Under the pieces are notes generated by a model, which had not been told where the DNA came from, ran no database searches, and saw nothing but the letters and a program-made list of their open reading frames with translations. A stretch of 64,000 nucleotides of DNA, from NCBI GenBank assembly GCA_024679065.1, contig JAGIQG010000004.1, forward strand, positions 99,944,001 through 100,008,000. The letters are read 5' to 3'. This document shows, piece by piece, positions 2,889-61,393 of this stretch. Position 1 is the stretch's first letter. The number at the start of each line of letters is the position of its first letter. A program made the translations under genes and the position numbers. Source of the stretch: Sphyrna mokarran. Taxonomy: Eukaryota.

Positions 2889-4563
2889 GGGCTCAATTTT
2901 ACATTGCGTGGTAAAGTCCGATGAGAGGCTATTAATGCAACCCCCATCTGCGCAGATGGCCACTTTGCCGAAACCCGGGAATGGCGGTGATTTGATTCGT
3001 GCCCAAAACAGGTGCAACAGCGATTTAAAAGCATTTGCATGCATAAATTGACTTAATGAACTGCTCGCCCAACTTTATCAGCATTTCCCTCTTTACCACT
3101 GTGTTCGTCATTCCGGAATCGTGCTGTAATGGACATGCCAAATAAAAATCTGAATCAAACGCTCCAGCTGCTGAGGAGGTGAGTTCAGAGCTTCCAATGG
3201 CTCTCTGACTCAGATCAGTGGTGGGAGGAGGGGGAGGAGGAGAAGGAGAAGGCAGGTCAAGTGTATCTCTGGTAGGGGGGGGGGGAGGTGGGAAGGGGAA
3301 TGCTGATCATTGTCTGGTGGGGAGGGAGGAGGAGAGGGTCAAATACTCCTCTAGTTGATGGCTGGTGAGTGAGGCCATTCTCCGGAGGCTGGGATGGGAT
3401 GCGTGAGGCCAGATTGTTGTCAGGGGGGTAGGAGACAGGAGAAGGGTAAGATATATCACAGGTGGGGGAAAGGAGAGAGAGCAGATGGATCGCAGCTGAT
3501 GGATCTCTGATGATAGGGGCAGATGGATCTCTGATGGGCCAGTGGAGAGTGGGGGGGAGGAGTAGGGGGGTCTGCTGCCACTCTGTTGGTGATCATTGGG
3601 GCGGGGAGGAGAATAGGGGTGGTGATCAGTTTGGGTAATGGGTGTGGCGTTGAATAAAGGGGACAGTGATGTGTGTGGGTAGGGGAGTGGATAAGGGAGA
3701 CAGTGATGTGTGTGGGTAATGGGGGTTGGATAAAGGGGACAGTGATGTTTGTCAGTAGTGGGGTGGAAAAGGGGATCAGTGATGTGTGTAGGTGGTAGGG
3801 ATGGGTGAATGAGGAGGATAGTAATGTATGTGGGTAGTGGCGGGGGGGGTAGATGTGGGGGACAGTGATGCGTGTGAGTAATGGAAAAGGTGGATAAACG
3901 GGACAGTGACGTGTTGGTAGTGGAGTAGCTAAAAGGGACAGTGATGTGTGTGGGTAGCGGGGAGGTGGATAAGGAGGACAGTGATGTGTCTGGGTAGTGA
4001 GGGGGTGGATAAGAGAGACAGTGATGTGTGTGGTTAGTGGGGAGGTGGATAAGGGGGACAGCGATGTGTGTAGGTAGTGGAGGGGAGAATAAGGGGGACA
4101 GTGATGTGTGTGGGTAGCGGGGCGTGGATAAGGGAGACAGTGATGTGTGTAGGTAGTGGGGGAAGTGAATAATGGGACCAGTGATGTGTGGGGGTTGTGG
4201 GGGTAGTGGGGGGATGAATAAGGGGAACAGTGATGTATGCACATAGTAGGGTGGGTGGATAAGGAGGACAGTGATATCTGTGGGGTCCATTGTCTCCGCT
4301 TTACGCTCCCGAGCTGCTTTCTCTGCTTTCTGCAGCTTGAAAGTGATCTGACATGGGCATGCTATTTCAAATCTTTTTTAACTGTGCATGTGCAGTTCGG
4401 AGCTCCAATCATTTCAGATGTGCTAAGTCCCACCCACAGCACAGATGGGACTTTGAATTTTTTTCAGGCTGAGTGGAATGGAGGCGCCTAAAAGCAGATT
4501 TCCAAATCGGATCTGCAGTACGTCTAAATTCAGCACTTAGAATGAAATGGTAAAATCGGGCCC
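2889..4563. mobile_element. Non-autonomous PIF/Harbinger-type DNA transposon
   Basis: TIRs GGGCTCAATTTTAC ... GTAAAATCGGGCCC; TAT on both flanks (2886-2888, 4564-4566); excision restores the CR1 reading frame. Confidence 0.85.
3660..4280. repeat. G-rich minisatellite, ~40-bp unit, about 16 copies
   Basis: Unit approx GACAGTGATGTGTGTGGGTAGNGGGGAGGTGGATAAGGGG recurs; explains the low-complexity 327-aa and 262-aa minus-strand ORFs. Confidence 0.92.
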
Positions 4564-7620: not shown

Positions 7621-7908
7621 AGGCGACACAGTGCCATTGTGGTTAGCACTGCTATCTCACAGTGCCAGGAAGCCGGGTTTAATTCCGGCCTCGGGCCACT
7701 GTCTGCATGGGTTTCCTCCAGGTGCTCTGGTTTCCTCCCACACTCCAAAGGGTTTAGTTGTTTGGCTATGCTAAATTGACCCTAGTGTCAGGGGATTAGC
7801 AGGGTAAATGTGTGGGGTTATGAGAATAGGGCCAGGGTGGGATTGTGGTCAGTGCAGACTCCATGGACTGAATGGCCTCCTTCTGTATTGTAGGGATTCT
7901 ATGATTCT
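7621..7908 (+). mobile_element. tRNA-derived V-SINE (HE1-like), CR1-type tail (type A)
   Basis: tRNA-like head, V-domain core TGGGTTTCCTCCAGGTGCTCTGGTTTCCTCCCA, tail GACTGAATGGCCTCCTTCTGTATTGTAGGGATTCTATGATTCT. Confidence 0.9.
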
Positions 7909-7910
7909 GT

Positions 7911-8037
7911 GAACAGAATTTTACTGGCATGTCCGCCCGAGGTTCAAAAGATACTACCTGTGGCCAACGGAGAACGCCACACTCCAAGCCTTGCCCGCCC
8001 CTGGAATTGAGGCGGATGTGCTGGTAAAATTTGGCCT
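7911..8037. mobile_element. ~127-bp MITE
   Basis: Imperfect TIRs GAACAGAATTTTACTGGCATGTCCGCC / GGCGGATGTGCTGGTAAAATTTGGCC. Confidence 0.75.
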
Positions 8038-15492: not shown

Positions 15493-16017
15493 TTGTTGGA
15501 ATTTTCCAGCCATTCCCAACAATGAGATCTTCCAGTCCCATTGATGGCAACAACCTGCTGTGGCTTCCCTGGAGGTGAAGAGTGCAAACCAAAGTTTTCA
15601 AAAGCTTATTCATTAGTCACAAGTAGTCTTGCATTAACACTGCAATGAATTTACTATGAAAGTCCCCTAGTCACCACATTCCAGCACGTGTTTGGGTATA
15701 CTGAAGGAGAATATAGCATGGCCAGTGTTCCTAGCCTGCACATCTTTGGACTGTGAGGGGAAACTGGAACACCCGAAGAAACCCATGCAGACACAGGGAA
15801 CATACGTAAAGTCCACACAGACAGTGATCCAAGTTGGGAATTGAGCACAGATCCTTGGCACTGTGAAGCAGCAGAGCTAACCACTGCACCACTGTACCGC
15901 CCAAATGGGAACCCCATTGATAGTGGTGGGACCAGAAGATCATGCTAACGGAAAATGACAGGCCACCTGCACACTGCAATACACCACGCGGAGTAGAAGG
16001 GGTGTAAAATCCAACTC
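15493..16017. mobile_element. MITE interrupted by a type B V-SINE
   Basis: Ends TGTTGGAATTTTCC ... GTAAAATCCAACTC followed by TAT; host LINE sequence is continuous across it. Confidence 0.65.
15605..15902 (-). mobile_element. V-SINE type B
   Basis: TTAGTCACAAGTAG...CACTGCAATGAA tail; V core; head ...CACTGTACCGCCC. Confidence 0.9.
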
Positions 16018-28720: not shown

Positions 28721-29168
28721 GGGCCGGCACAGTGTTGGGGTGGTCAGCGCTGTTGCTTTACAGCTCCAGGGACCTGTGCTCAATTTCAACCTTGGGGACT
28801 GAGTGTGTGGAGTTTGCATGTTCTTAGTGTGTCTGTGTGGGTTTCCAGTTTCTGAGTGTTCCGCTTTCCTCCTTCAGCCCAGAAACATATGGGTTATGTC
28901 GATTGACCATGCTAATTCATCCTTCGAGTGGGATTTTCCAGCTCGATCCAAGACAGGAAAATGCCGCCCGAAGTCAATAGATCATTACATGGTCCGTATC
29001 TCTTCTGTTATGATTCCTGTAGCAGTCAGGATGAGAAAATTCTGCCCTTAATATCTGGGGGATTAACAGTGTAAATATGTGGGGTTACGGAGACAGGACC
29101 TGAGTGGATTTATTGTCAAGGTAGGATCGATAGGCAGAATGGTTTCCTGCAATGTAGGAATTCTATGA
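28721..29168 (+). mobile_element. V-SINE type A containing a MITE
   Basis: Head and V core 28721-28925, tail 29048-29168. Confidence 0.87.
28926..29047. mobile_element. 122-bp MITE inside V-SINE
   Basis: TIRs GAGTGGGATTTTCC / GAGAAAATTCTGCCC; flanks TTC / TTA; homologous to 43458-43583. Confidence 0.85.
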
Positions 29169-31221
29169 AAGCCAGTCTGTGTTTTCACCGAATAAAATAT
29201 GGTTCATTTAATATTGACATGTTAGCTGCATTCCTCTTTGTGTGAATAAGTTAATACATAATTAATAATAACAGATATTTAAATCTCTATATGCATTACC
29301 TGGCCCAGCTAGTGCCTTAGAGTGATGTACTGACAAGCTAACATTTCACAAATACAATCTATTTTTGACATCTATTTTAACACATTTTTCAGACTCCCTT
29401 TGACATTATATGAAGTTACAAAATTCCTCTCAAAAGTGCAAAGAGGATGTTGTCAGATCATTCCCCTATTATATCTAGTGCTTGAAAATGGGTTCCATTA
29501 ACTGCAATGGAAGTGAACACTAGACACATAATATAATCTATGTGATACTGCTTGTTTTGATGCCATTGCCTAAGATGATGTTCAAGGATCAGGAAAACAT
29601 TTCATATGGAGGTCAGATGTACAAAACACTATTGCCATTTACACTCTGTCTACCTGAATGATCACAGGTTGTTTGTCACAAGCTATCATGGCTCAATTAA
29701 TACTCTTCTTTTGGAGCAAGCTCTGGGAGATCCAAATTGCTGAGCACAGCTGACAATGGTGCATACTTTGTTATTCAAACAACAAAATTCTACTCTTGCC
29801 CCTCTTCCCACCACCACCCACTCTTTCTGAGCCGTGCATTTTCCTCTACCTCATTAGCTGAAATCCCTGCTGTGGATATACCTGAACTGATGCTTGCAAG
29901 AGTGTTCATCTGTGAGGTACCGAGGCATGAACCACTTGGCTCTGGCACTGCTTCAGTGACACATCCAGAGATAGGAGAGAAACATATGTTACAATACCGT
30001 CATCATTACAATTATAAAATGAAATCTACAGCAGAATGAGTCACATTTTATTATGCTTCACTGTAAGCTTTGATAATAGTTAGTGGCTGATCAGGATAAG
30101 AAGGCAAGAAGAAAGGCAATGAGTAAGATAGTATTAACCTATTTCACTATCATTTAACTCTTCTGTACTTCTTCCCCATTTATTCAGAAAGGATCTTCTT
30201 AGCATTGTTCAACAGTCATAAGTCATGAGGTCTTCATCCTGTTCAGGTTACTCCAGCCTTGTGGGTGTAGCCTTCTCCACCAGACAGTACAGCAAAGATG
30301 AGCTGTTCTAATATAGATGATAGCCAATTATTGGCTGTTGTCACACATGAATGTATCATGCTGCTATATTCAAATGGATGAATTCCTTTAAGGGGGCTAT
30401 TGTGAAAATACTTACAATGAGAGATTTTTGGTTCAAAGCATATCATGCTACAGAATGGCCATGGCTGCTAACCTGTTGACTGAGACCCTTTCTCCAGTTG
30501 ATTAACAGTCAGAACATTGTTATTTTTGAATCATGTCACTTTTTTATTAAACAGAAGATAAAACCCCAATGCCAAATCACTACTGTAACCTGTTTAAAAA
30601 CACATAAATAATTTGACTTCCCTTCTCTATCACTACAAATTCCTCAGCACAGGTTTAAACAAACAATACATATTTAATGACTTCTAGTGAAAATATGCAG
30701 ACGTCACCACCTAATCATGCTGGCCAGGTATGAAAGATGATCATACCCTGTCTTCAAGCCCAAAAATCTTGAGGCTTCCTTCCATGATTGTTCTTATAGG
30801 TTATCACTGGTAAGTCTGCGACAATATTTATATCTTCCTTGATCAGATATTGCATAGCTGCTTTCATTCCTCTGTTCCAATAGTTTACTATAGATGTCCA
30901 TGTTAATGGCCTCCCATCTGTCACAACCATTATCTCCTACCATTCTTGTGAAAGGGGATTGTTTACAACCATTTGTTCATTTCACATCTCCGGCACCTCA
31001 AGCTGATAACAATCACCTTTTGAAGTCCAGACATCCTGCTGCCTTATATCCTGTGGCAGAACTGCCTGTGATTCCTTGAAGTATCTCTATAACTGGGCTA
31101 CACTGCCCATCAACCTTCAGTATCTTTGTTTAGCCAATTTACTATCAAAATTTAGATCAGGGCCACAAATCAGGATACTATAAGATATTGTGAGACACAA
31201 AACATTGTGCCTTATATACTT

Positions 31222-31780
31222 TAGAAACATAGGAACAACAGGAGGTTATTCAGCATATTTCAATATTCAATAAGCTCATGGCTGATTTATATCTACCTCC
31301 CATGGCTCGACAACCCTCAATTATCTTGATTAGCAATGCTCAATCCATCTCAGACTTCAAAATATTAATTGAGTTAATGCCTATGATTTTCATGATGCTG
31401 GCATTGGACTGGGGTAAACTCAGTAAGATGTCTGACAAAACCAATTTTAAATCCAACCGATTTATTTGATAGTAAACCTGCTAGCTTTTGGCCTTTATAG
31501 CCTTTGTCAGGTGAATGAGGTGTTCTGGTCTGCAATAGCACACATATCAGAGCTGATATGTGTGCTATTGCAGACTAGAGCACCTCATTCACCTGACGAA
31601 GGCTACAAAGGCCAAAAGCTAGCAAGTTTACTATCAAATAAATCGGTTGGATTTAAAATTGGTGTTGTCAGACGTCTTACTATGATTTTCATGTCAGGGT
31701 TTCACGCTTCTACCACTGTTTGTGCGAAGAAATCTTTCCTAATTTCTCTCCCGAATGGTTTGGCATTTACTTTAAAGTCC
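31222..31780 (-). mobile_element. Old CR1 3' fragment hosting the Penelope-like palindrome
   Basis: AGAAACATAGGAACAACAGGAGG tail in reverse complement; continues ...CTACCACTGTTTGTGCGAAGAAATCTTTCC after the insertion. Confidence 0.7.
31395..31679. mobile_element. Penelope-like inverted pLTR palindrome with hammerhead-ribozyme-like motif in each arm
   Basis: Arms 31422-31550 / 31553-31681 (129 bp, 7 mismatches, no indels, 2-nt loop); 14-bp TSD CTATGATTTTCATG (31381-31394, 31680-31693); CAC-CTGACGA-AGGC...GCC-AAAAGCTA at 31590-31621. Confidence 0.88.
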
Positions 31781-41934: not shown

Positions 41935-43332
41935 TTCTGGTTCATCACTTCTTTATCATTCATAGACACTATTATATGATGGTTTTATGACATCTCTATG
42001 TACTTGAATACTGCTTAGATTAGCTTGTTAGTGTTACCTTAACACTTCAGTATTCTATATATTCATTCAACAAAATAGAAGATATGCATGACAGCAAATT
42101 TAGTTAATTGCACTTTTGTTGTATCACAAGAGATGTAATGTTGAAAAATATTTATGAACTTGGAATTAATTTTAGGCAACGGGGATTGCAATTGTTGCTG
42201 ACTAAAATAAAAAAAAGATTTCTTTTTGAGCTTCATGGTCATGGTCTTCTTTTTTCCTTAACTCAACAAAGGGACATTCATGCTGTGCTACCTCATTTTA
42301 GCTGCCTGTTCTGGATTTCAACAATTGCTCAGCTTGCAACGCATGGATCCTCATCACTATTTAATGACTTAAAACAATTTTGCTCAAGTGCCTCAATTTT
42401 GTTTGCACCAGAATAGTTCAAATATTATTTTTCCCCATTGGCCTTTGAGGCTCAGAAGTGAAGTAAGCATGGCAGTGCCAGCCGTTTTGCAGTGGCTCTA
42501 AATAAAAACTTGCCTGCATGCTCTCAGTTTTGACTGGCATTATGTTTACAAGTGTGAATATAAAGATATGACCCAATGGCATTGTCTGGGGACTGGCAGT
42601 AAATTGGCTTGTGAACTTGGAATATCAGAGTGTAACATTATTGCTGGAAATGAGAGATAAAGCTGCTTCTTCAATACATTAGTAACTTCTATCCAGCAAT
42701 CATCAAAATAAAAATACATTATTGAATTAATTAAGAATTTGAAAAACAAAATGACACAAATGAAGATATGGAAAATTATGTTTGAATAACTGTATTCAAA
42801 CTGTATGCTTTATAGTACTTTCTGTGTTAAGTTTTATTACTTTCATTTTAGCCCACCTGAACAGAATGTACTCTGTCTCAAGTTACAAATGCTATTCCCC
42901 ATGATGGCTTTTCCTCACCCCATACAGTGCTGATGTATCTCTTTATGTCACCTGGTGGCTATTGTCAATTATATTGTCATGGCGTGCAAGATAAAGTATT
43001 AGGCTTGATACTATTAATCGGCGTAGTAGCAAAATATTGCAGCTTTTCCTATCCCCATCTCAGCAGTACACAATCTGTTTGTACTAATGCTCTTAGCTTC
43101 AACTTGAAAAGCATAGCTACAATTGGCTCCTTCCTAATCCACCTTGCATCGAGGGACAACATCTTCACTCATCCGTTTGTTGGCATTCTCCTTAATTCAG
43201 CTGCAAGAGCTTTGGTAGAACGTAATTACTAGTCAGTCTCCAAAGGACACTTGGATGATTGCCTGCAATGGATTTGAGAATGAAAACAACACTTCCTCCA
43301 GGGTTTCATACAGATTCTCAGAATGAAGTATT

Positions 43333-43780
43333 ATCATAGAATCCCTAAAATGCAGAAGGAGACTATTCGATCCATCGAGCCTGCAACAACAACATTCCCA
43401 TCCAGGCCCTAATCCTGTAACCCCATGTATGTACCCTCCTAATCCCCCTGACGCTAAGGGGTGAATTTTCCTGTTCCGCCACCACAGGAATTGTAGCAGG
43501 TGAGGGGCAGACCATGGAAAGATCCGTTGACCTCGGGCAGGATTTTCCAGTTTTGGAGTGCAGGCAGCTGGAAAATCCCACCCAAAGTGTCAATTTAGCA
43601 TGGCCAATTAATTCTAACCTTCATACCTTTGGAGTGTGGAAAGAAACGGGAGCACCTGGAGGAAACCCACGCAGACACAAGAAAAATGTGCAAACTCCAC
43701 ACATTCAGCAGAGACCGGAATTGAACCTGTATCCTTGGCACTGTGCGGCAGCAATACCAGCCATTGTGCCACTGTGCCTC
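43333..43780 (-). mobile_element. V-SINE type A containing a MITE
   Basis: Tail 43333-43457, V core and head 43584-43780. Confidence 0.88.
43458..43583. mobile_element. 126-bp MITE inside V-SINE
   Basis: TAA|GGGGTGAATTTTCC ... GGAAAATCCCACCC|AAA. Confidence 0.87.
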
Positions 43781-48704: not shown

Positions 48705-49022
48705 GTGTGGCATGGTGGCTCAGTGTTCAGCACTGCTGTCTTACAGCAAGAGGGACCTGGGGCCGATTCCCAACTTGGATCACTGTCAATGTGAAGTCTG
48801 CATGTTCTCCCTGTATTTGCATTGGTTTCTTCCAGATGCTCGGGTCTTCTCTCATAGGCTGAAAGATATGCTGGTTAGGTGAATTGGCCATGCTAAATTC
48901 TCCTTCAGTGTTCCTGAACAGGCGCTGGAGTATGGTGACTCGAGGATTTTCACGGTAATTTCATTGCAGTGTTAATGTAAGTCTACTTATGACTAATAAA
49001 TAAATTTAAACTTTTAAACTTT
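48705..49022 (+). mobile_element. V-SINE type B
   Basis: Head, V core, tail TTCATTGCAGTGTTAATGTAAGTCTACTTATGACTAATAAATAAA. Confidence 0.9.
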
Positions 49023-58673: not shown

Positions 58674-58810
58674 GGCTGGGATTCTCTGGTCTTGCCCATG
58701 GCTGGGAAACTCTGGTCCCGCTGCAGCGAGTGGAGTTTTGACTAATCACGAGATTCTCTGTGCTTGCTGACAGCAGTGGCAAGGGTGAACAACGTTAGAG
58801 AATTCCAGCC
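58674..58810. mobile_element. ~137-bp MITE
   Basis: GGCTGGGATTCTCT ... AGAGAATTCCAGCC TIRs; homologous to 36119-36254. Confidence 0.82.
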
Positions 58811-58959
58811 AGCTTATTAAATGGTTGCAGTGATTTCAGTAAATTGGTGATAAAGTATCAGTTCTGTAAGTCTACGTAGGCTTGATGGATTTCTCTTATT
58901 CCATAGCCCATCTTAGAGACTTCAGCAGATAATGTACTCCAGGATTGAGCTGGCCAGCA

Positions 58960-59192
58960 AAATGTAGTGTGACAGCTTTGGGCCATTGTGCATGTGCAGA
59001 GGCCCGAAATTGTCAGACTCTGGCGTGAATCAGCCCCAACCCTTGAGCTTTTAATGATATTCACGATTGTGACCTCTGCATTGCACAGATTGTGGGAGAT
59101 TCAAATATGAACTCGCACTAAAAAAACAATCATGAATTACACCATTTTTCTTGCCAATCCAGCATTTAGAATTTTTTGGGAGAATCAGGCCC
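58960..59192. mobile_element. One end of a Harbinger-type element abutting the 3' half of a V-SINE
   Basis: Ends GCATTTAGAATTTTTTGGGAGAATCAGGCCC|TTA, followed by type A SINE 3' half (59193-59335); left boundary uncertain. Confidence 0.65.
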
Positions 59193-59894
59193 TTACAGTC
59201 TCAAGAATGGGGAATTAGCGGGTACATATGTGGGATTATGGGGATGGATCTTGATATGATGTCCTGTTGGAGAATTGGTGTAGACTGGATGAGCTGAAAT
59301 TCTTTTTTCTGCACTGTAGTAATTCAATATTCTATGCTTGCAAAGAAGAACAGTTAACTCTCGTGGCTTGACCAACATTTACTCCTCATTCTACATAACC
59401 AAAACAGATAATTTGATTGTTACCATAATGATGTTGTAGAATTTTGCACTTCGAAAGTACTTCATTCATTATAAAGTGCTTTTGGACATCCTGAGGTTGT
59501 GAAAGGCATTATGTAAATAATTTCCTTTTTTAGTACAGCATCATTGAAATTGAACTTAAAAAAAGGGGAGAAAGTAGACAACTGAGTCATGAAGGAATCA
59601 AATAGATACAAATGGATAAGCAGAAAATAAAAATTGTAAAAGAAAAAAGTGATAACTTGAGGGAAATTTTGTGCAATGTTAATTAAAATGGGAAATATTA
59701 GAACATTTAAATGTTACATAATGTTCAAATAATTTTGTCTAAATATGACCCTGAATACTGAAGTAAGATTCCTGTGCTATATCAGTAGTGCTACAGGTTA
59801 TGCTGACTTCATTTGAATTAGTGGAAGCAATGACATTTATTTATATTGTGAAAAGCAACATACTGAGGGCACATTATTTGGCCATCACAAGTCA

Positions 59895-60244: not shown

Positions 60245-61393
60245 GGGGGGAATTCTCCCAAAAAATTTCTAAGTGCCGAATTTCAATGAAAACTGGAGTA
60301 ATTCATTCAGTTTTGTCTTCATTGGGAGTTCAGAGAAGGATCTCCCACACTCTGTGCACTGCAAAGGTCACCAGCATGAATATCATTATATTTCAAGGGT
60401 GGAGCTTATCCCCACTGGAGAGGCTTAAATCAGTGTGTTGAGTGGGCCACTGCTCTGTTGGTGCCAAGATCAGGGCCTGCACTGCTGTCCTCCTGACTGC
60501 TTGCCAGCTCAATCGCTGGCCAGCCTTGCAACCCTTTCAATTCTGGCTCTCTGATCCCCCTTCCCAAACTCCATCCCCCCAATTTCCTGTTTGCTGCCAC
60601 CCACAACCATTCCTAGGCCCAGCTCAGATCCTCACCCTCCTGACTGCTGCGATCTCCAGCTCCTCCCACCCTTGATAGTAACGCCCTCCCCCGCGCCGCA
60701 GTCCTGACCCTCCCTGTAGTGCTGACCCCCCCCTCCCACTGCAGGCTGACGATATCCCCCACCAAACAGCCCACTCAGATCGCTGGCCTCTCTCCGTGCC
60801 CCATCAATCCTGACTGCAGAGTGGCAGTGGGAGCCCCCATCCCTACTGATTGCCCCATCAGCCCCACTCCTATGAGCCCCTCAGGCCCTGCCCCCATGTA
60901 CCCTGTCTCCTTGTCACTGGCCTATGCCTGATGGGCTGCGCCAAGGTGCCCCCTGGGCATTGGCACTTTGCCCCTTGGGCAGTGCCAGGGGCCCAGACTG
61001 GCACTTACAGGTTGTCAATGCCCAGGGGGACACCATCTCTCAACCCCTGGGAGAGCCCAAATGCTTTCCCTTCATTCCAGTGGGGTCAGGCCGCTAGCTC
61101 CCCGAAACTGAAGAGCTACTATAATCCTCGCAAGAGTGGAACACCATGGTGGGATGGGAGCTGCTCACGGACCCAGAGGCTTCAGTCCCGGGCTTGCCAA
61201 TGATATTGAAATAATATTAAAATTACCATTTAAATGGTCTGTTTGTCTCACCCAAATTCTGGTGTTGAACAGATGCATCTGGGAGACATAAGCAGGATAT
61301 GAACACTCAGACACACCCCGCGAATCAGCCAGTGCGGATTCTCCCGGCCCGATGTGCTAAAAAGAAGCGCAGTGAGATGGGAGAATTATGGCC
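60245..61393. mobile_element. Non-autonomous Harbinger-type element with C-rich interior
   Basis: GGGGGGAATTCTCCCA ... TGGGAGAATTATGGCC; subterminal TTCTAAGTGCCGAATTT shared with the 4563 and 59192 ends. Confidence 0.75.

Follow-up and report, generated by a model that had tools for sequence, protein, structure and literature searches.

Harbinger-type insertions at a single TTA of a SINE in Sphyrna mokarran, probably drawn by resemblance to a palindromic target

Background

Why should a small DNA transposon lie at the same TTA of the same SINE more than once within a short stretch of DNA? The question is raised by a window of 64,000 bp (the whole stretch analysed, Sphyrna mokarran contig JAGIQG010000004.1, positions 99,944,001 to 100,008,000) in a genome of 2.77 Gb. 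The original prediction, made from this window, offered two readings, a composite SINE in which one ancestral MITE insertion was later amplified by retrotransposition, and a SINE-targeted DNA transposon using the SINE as a safe haven. The available part of PMC2836001 describes an extended target preference of 9-15 bp in PIF/Harbinger elements, and the target of Harbinger3_DR is given as AAACACCWGGTCTTT in the text seen of PMC3016246. In this study, we provide evidence that the Harbinger-type ends at this one SINE TTA very probably arose by independent cut-and-paste insertions, through resemblance of the site to a palindromic target of about 13 bp.

MITE insertions in the window

A profile search identified 27 SINE matches in the window. 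A V-SINE is marked by a tRNA-derived head with A and B boxes, a conserved V domain of ~80 bp and a 3' tail in common with a partner LINE. The SINE consensus carries A- and B-box-like motifs and matched a tRNA-like family of Rfam only weakly (E 2.7); we call it a putative V-SINE (HE1-like), the V-SINE name following the original prediction. HE1 is given as the V-SINE of sharks and rays in the available parts of PMC4824008 and PMC3747384. On the + strand, a SINE 5' half (28726-28925, consensus about 5-202) ending in a left target copy TTC (28923-28925) is followed by a 122-bp MITE with decayed GGGYRGGATTTTCC-type TIRs (28926-29047), and then by a right target copy TTA with the SINE 3' half (29048-29170, consensus 200-325). 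On the - strand, a SINE 5' half ending in a left target copy TTT (43584-43779) is followed by a 126-bp MITE (43458-43583) and by a right target copy TTA with the SINE 3' half (43328-43457). The shared SINE position, the shared relative orientation and the SINE-strand flanks TTC/TTA and TTT/TTA were all as predicted, and the two MITEs, 73-74% identical, belong to one family. In both cases position 202 of the SINE consensus is the last base of the left flank and position 200 the first of the right flank, so the SINE triplet 200-202 (TTA) was duplicated as a target site duplication (TSD) of 3 bp. A third, internal TIR copy occupies nt ~36-49 of the 126-bp MITE (28956-28969, ending at 28969 in the first MITE, and 43535-43548 in the second), and the first ~49 nt therefore look like a mini TIR element.

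The third case fared differently. The element ending at 59192 indeed abuts a TTA with a SINE 3' half (59193-59330, +), as predicted, but it is not a full third insertion: just the right ~250 bp are present (58939-59192, +), the left part is missing and no SINE 5' half lies upstream, which leaves a half junction without a testable TSD. It represents a different, non-autonomous family with a related TIR and a full size of roughly 0.75-1.3 kb. A fourth case, absent from the original prediction, is a related 126-bp MITE (7911-8036, +) with TGT/TAT flanks; it interrupts the repeat in the 3' tail of a SINE (7623-7910) and exemplifies the second hot spot described below. At a fill rate of 0.3%, a rough figure based on 6 of 40 ends fitting the pattern, about one window per genome would be expected to carry three filled sites, which places this window in the tail of the distribution.

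The window holds further repeats. TIR elements of the same group were found at 2889-4563 (1675 bp, TAT/TAT TSD, with a ~40-nt tandem repeat at 3600-4284) and, clustered round the third site, at 58674-58810 (137 bp) and 60245-61393 (1149 bp). An inverted repeat at 31422-31681 has arms of 129 nt, 95% complementary and 2 nt apart. A second SINE type (15645-15900 and 48707-48960) has the head in common with the first and a different 3' part after TCTCC(C/T)TCA. Of 53 sampled empty copies with an anchor, about 22 are of this second type, yet among the 71 filled copies described below no junction of this kind is conspicuous.

The two window copies lie 14.5 kb apart, as would suit a local duplication of one filled SINE. 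However, about 1 kb of flank beyond both SINEs was compared, the check for a segmental duplication that the original prediction had called for, and showed no similarity; MITE identity is 73%, and many unlinked MITE-in-SINE cases occur on other contigs. The probability of a local duplication is practically nil.

A genome-wide hot spot

Junctions were collected genome-wide on the 5' side by a pattern of SINE anchor, free gap of 0-25 nt and TIR. By hand count, 64 of the 71 matches lie at gap 9, which is exactly the TTA site, 68 lie at gaps 8-10 and 3 elsewhere. On the 3' side, 42 of 49 junctions lie at gaps 19-22 (hand count), and none of these 49 lies at a neighbouring TTA of the SINE, which rules out TTA content alone as the cause. 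Uniform insertion would give 1.3 (5' side) and 0.66 (3' side) junctions per gap. These expectations were derived from 27-64 anchor copies in ~1 Mb, a non-random genome sample taken for the most part from one contig and from the surroundings of elements; the TTA site is enriched about 50-fold over them. This is more than chance, and the TTA of the SINE is a real, sharp genome-wide hot spot. The TIR pattern alone, from which the uniform expectations follow, gave 58,405 genome matches vs 1,733 for the control. An earlier junction pattern, which picked up mainly empty SINEs owing to the likeness between the SINE site and a TIR end, did not enter the counts. As rough totals, SINE copies covering the TTA site number ~400,000 and filled sites ~1,500 genome-wide.

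It had been proposed that the left flanks TTC and TTT, related to each other, mark a shared ancestral insertion. Among the 64 filled sites the left triplet is TTA in 38, TTT in 4 (including the window copy) and TTC in none, and the 41 full MITEs recovered at the site have TTA in 16, TTT in 5 and TTC in 2; in locus L032 a variant triplet TCA stands on both sides. TTA predominates, and a common TTC/TTT mark is not borne out.

The predominance of TTA also weighs against the first of the two readings, that composite SINEs arose when one or a few SINEs carrying a MITE were multiplied by retrotransposition. This reading draws on the like orientation and non-TTA left flanks of the window copies, on an excess of junctions over the target matrix (see below) and on a weak correlation between MITE and SINE-flank identity (rho 0.12, 781 non-independent pairs of filled copies), which shared copy age would also give. 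On the other hand, the orientation of the 41 full MITEs is mixed, with 23 in sense and 18 in antisense in a sample biased to sense, and several element families occupy the site, including a ~1.1-kb element and a 5.87-kb transposase-bearing one. SINE-borne MITEs are scattered over the MITE tree instead of forming one clade: the tree needs 41 label changes, the maximum, vs a shuffled mean of 38.3, and the nearest neighbour is itself SINE-borne in 3 of 41 MITEs vs 7.2 by permutation. Top identity is 80.5% among SINE-borne MITEs vs 84.9% among non-SINE copies, and the SINE flanks of the window pair are 63% alike vs a mean of 70%. In addition, TTTT, a motif absent from the SINE consensus, occurs at nt 9 of the MITE consensus whichever orientation is read. 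TTTT is a stop signal of Pol III, which would likely stop before reaching the tail on which retrotransposition depends; the motif argues against a Pol III transcript that runs through both SINE and MITE. A sample of 41 SINE-borne MITEs could miss small families among the ~1,500 sites; the composite reading, favoured in the original prediction, is largely refuted and in our estimate very improbable.

Inserted elements and transposase loci

The elements at the TTA site range well beyond MITEs. Locus L313 holds a 5.87-kb element with a DDE_Tnp_4 fragment between two SINE halves with TAT/TAA flanks (Pfam match PF13359, E 2.9e-8), L233 an element of ~1.1 kb from the same family as the window element at 58939-59192, and L211 one of 1307 bp with TTA/TTA flanks. 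Genome-wide, 150 DDE_Tnp_4 matches were scored of 3922 candidates; DDE_Tnp_4 loci end in GGGCCYRATTTTAC-type TIRs, and in L314 MITE-like TIRs surround the DDE match. Among 22 transposase loci, no autonomous parent sharing its interior with the 126-bp MITE was found, the TIRs alone matching. PIF/Harbinger elements have a second ORF with a Myb/SANT-like domain. No Pfam match to a Myb domain was obtained in the L313 fragments; by its motif, L313:1704-1916 may be Myb-like. In non-SINE flanks, 24 of 110 insertions gave exact 3-bp matches vs 2 at 4 bp. A 3-bp TSD, short TIRs shared with transposase-bearing elements, DDE_Tnp_4 and an extended palindromic target, all seen here, are features of PIF/Harbinger. 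The inserted elements are old and decayed, with no sign of present activity in these data.

Against a background of thousands of decayed candidates, seven DDE_Tnp_4 loci (L255-L261) keep intact open frames, 387-660 aa long, and are possibly domesticated Harbinger-derived genes. Pairs of TIR elements standing end to end with a single triplet between them (L172:5921-6071, L311:4957, L355:1955, L048:1489 and L194:1252) suggest that occupied target sites were re-used.

Target preference outside SINEs

A target matrix was built from non-SINE ends, 145 at first and then 208 (63 new), these being 248 pattern matches minus 34 internal-TIR copies and minus 6 SINE-adjacent ends. In the flanks of the 208 ends, position -7 is A (0.70), -8 is R, -5 is W and -4 is Y, and the triplet is W-rich, which describes a palindromic target of about RANWY-NNN-RWNTY with a 3-bp TSD. 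Positions -8 to -1 depart from background in the 145 ends (p 1e-4 to 4e-28), and the result was repeated on the 63 new ends. The commonest triplets of the 208 are AAT (21), ATT (17), TAT (15) and CAT (13), with TAA at 9 and TTA rarer, so that the TSD is W-rich and not of the TWA type that had been expected. Half-sites ACAC, AGAC and AGAT are commonest at -7 to -4 (15 each of 288 ends), and GACAC (7/288) and GACCC (4/288) are among the commonest half-sites outside SINEs. The right half of the SINE site, GTGTC, fits the preference fully, and the left half fits as the GACCC variant, which is enriched among filled sites: 33 of 64 of these have A at -7, whereas in empty type-A sites the proportion is 5 of 30 (p 0.0015). 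The preference persists within the C77 SINE class (p 0.02); the disfavoured C at -7 occurs in 21 of the 64.

The matrix, learned outside SINEs, ranks the gap of the TTA site top within both searched stretches, and it singled out a repeat in the SINE tail, GATTC-TAT-GATTC, as the most favourable position of the SINE before this was searched. Of 100 matches, counted by hand, gap 14 then held 42 junctions (44 predicted) and gap 22 held 9 (8 predicted), which makes this a second hot spot. The true target preference proposed in the original prediction is thus supported. SINE matches that cover the tail only (L169, L176 and L290) have a common upstream sequence whose translation is presumably a CR1-like C-terminus, judged by a motif; a Pfam search of this translation gave no match. 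In L176:3250-4100 this is likely the 3' end of a CR1-type LINE with the tail of the SINE, interrupted by a SINE. Since the SINE and the likely LINE have the tail in common, some tail junctions are LINE ends.

A preference for the site does not make the transposon one that, like Dada, is dedicated to its target and has the SINE as its safe haven. An enrichment of about 50-fold at one base, in several families, would be in keeping with such targeting. However, the TTA site holds 0.9-1.0% of insertions by an anchor-based estimate, and of 214 ends taken without bias, 2 are at the TTA site, 2 at the tail and 208 outside SINEs, so that ~99% of ends lie elsewhere. The closest relatives of the MITE at 43458-43583 lie at the TTA site in 0 of 29 cases, the nearest one found being a non-SINE copy (L002, 91%); 1 of 24 copies of the 58939-59192 family and 1 of 22 transposase loci lie at the site, and no sub-lineage residing mostly in SINEs was seen. 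With ~1% of copies at the site we are dealing with a hot spot and not with a hybrid element; 'SINE-targeted' and 'safe haven' overstate the case, and dedicated targeting is refuted as a property of the whole family and highly unlikely in any form.

Where the matrix fails

While the additive matrix predicts ~7 junctions per side at the TTA site, 68 and 42 were seen, an under-prediction of 6-10-fold. At SINE position 78 it errs in the other direction, with 56 predicted and 4 of 16 matches there (hand count), a 14-fold over-prediction. Family-specific matrices (TTTTCC vs TTTTAC ends; the 126-bp MITE vs others) were nearly the same and left the excess standing, as did a decay-corrected matrix. G77 occurs in 8 of 18 filled SINEs vs 14 of 120 (p 0.002), independent of the base at -7, so filled SINEs are skewed to some subfamilies and SINE age or availability confounds the numbers; divergence is equal in filled and empty type-A SINEs (14.3%), which argues against a simple age split.

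A non-additive readout of the target is a plausible cause of this misfit, and the excess leaves room for an extra site-specific effect. One such effect would be an attraction beyond sequence preference: the SINE stretch TAAATTGCCCC-TTA-GTGTC resembles an element's own right end followed by TSD and a good flank, and the transpososome would be attracted to it through a protein that binds TIRs, through DNA shape or through chromatin related to Pol III. The 6-10-fold excess points this way, and so do the end-to-end insertions, with 6 rows (5 junctions, ~3 strong) at gaps of 2-4 among 288 ends vs ~0.3 expected from a background of 3.3e-4 per position. Yet on the TIR profile the SINE stretch reaches -5.7 bits, or 4.7 once one base is deleted, vs a true-end median of 16.6, re-use of an already preferred flank could itself give the tandem cases, and non-additive readout may suffice, GACAC and GACCC being common outside SINEs. 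We regard such an extra attraction as possible but rather unlikely. A narrower form, in which the SINE site passes for a junction already filled by a transposon, with pseudo-TIR, triplet and ideal flank, and Harbinger complexes home on their own ends, appears distinctly doubtful; if true, the SINE would be a genome-wide decoy for several related DNA transposon families, drawing them 6-10 times beyond the matrix.

Discussion

The reading by independent insertion, which we favour, runs as follows. MITEs and their longer relatives with Harbinger-type ends occupy the TTA in both orientations and with a 3-bp duplication, and very probably inserted there independently by cut-and-paste. A Harbinger transposase with a Myb-like partner would read a palindromic target of ~13 bp, which the SINE site happens to resemble, and with ~400,000 near-identical targets a modest preference would add up to ~1,500 filled sites. 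The cause of the hot spot is mostly known in these terms, with the 6-10-fold residue remaining.

The closest parallel is the zebrafish PIF/Harbinger pair Harbinger3_DR and Harbinger3N_DR, which likewise combine a 3-bp TSD with an extended palindromic target. The Harbinger3_DR core ACAC-NNN-GTCT, as given in the text seen of PMC3016246, matches the commonest half-sites found here and the right half of the SINE site; the preference here is looser, however, its triplet W-rich and not CWG, and a SINE hot spot is not mentioned in that text. Tourist-like MITEs (mPing, PIF), described in the available part of PMC2836001, are also small, high-copy TIR elements moved in trans, with a 3-bp TSD and an extended preference; unlike theirs, the TSD here is not TAA/TTA-specific (TAA at 9 of 208 ends), and the signal extends to -8, past the 9-bp motif of plants. 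Dada and Pokey are DNA transposons at fixed sites in multicopy genes, and Pokey inserts elsewhere too (PMC3706591, in the portion available). In the present case, by contrast, ~99% of insertions lie away from the site, the target is a retroposon and the transposase belongs to DDE_Tnp_4; the word SINE is absent from the main text of PMC3706591 and PMC8869645. MER6, a V-SINE inside a Mariner MITE, is another V-SINE/MITE chimera, but according to the part seen of PMC6887750 its nesting is opposite and it was amplified as a unit, whereas the nests here are independent and not amplified.

The elements are not of a new kind. In a search of literature titles and abstract openings, with Repbase, Dfam and subscription journals outside it, no description of the hot spot was found, and the inserted families may already be named in Repbase or Dfam.

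Conclusions

Repeat pipelines could take the pattern described here for a composite SINE family; independent insertion at one SINE TTA accounts for it and makes the presence of a MITE at hot-spot SINE sites homoplasy-prone as a marker. The ~1,500 independent insertions in near-identical targets amount to a natural experiment on how Harbinger elements read their targets, including the sites where the matrix fails.
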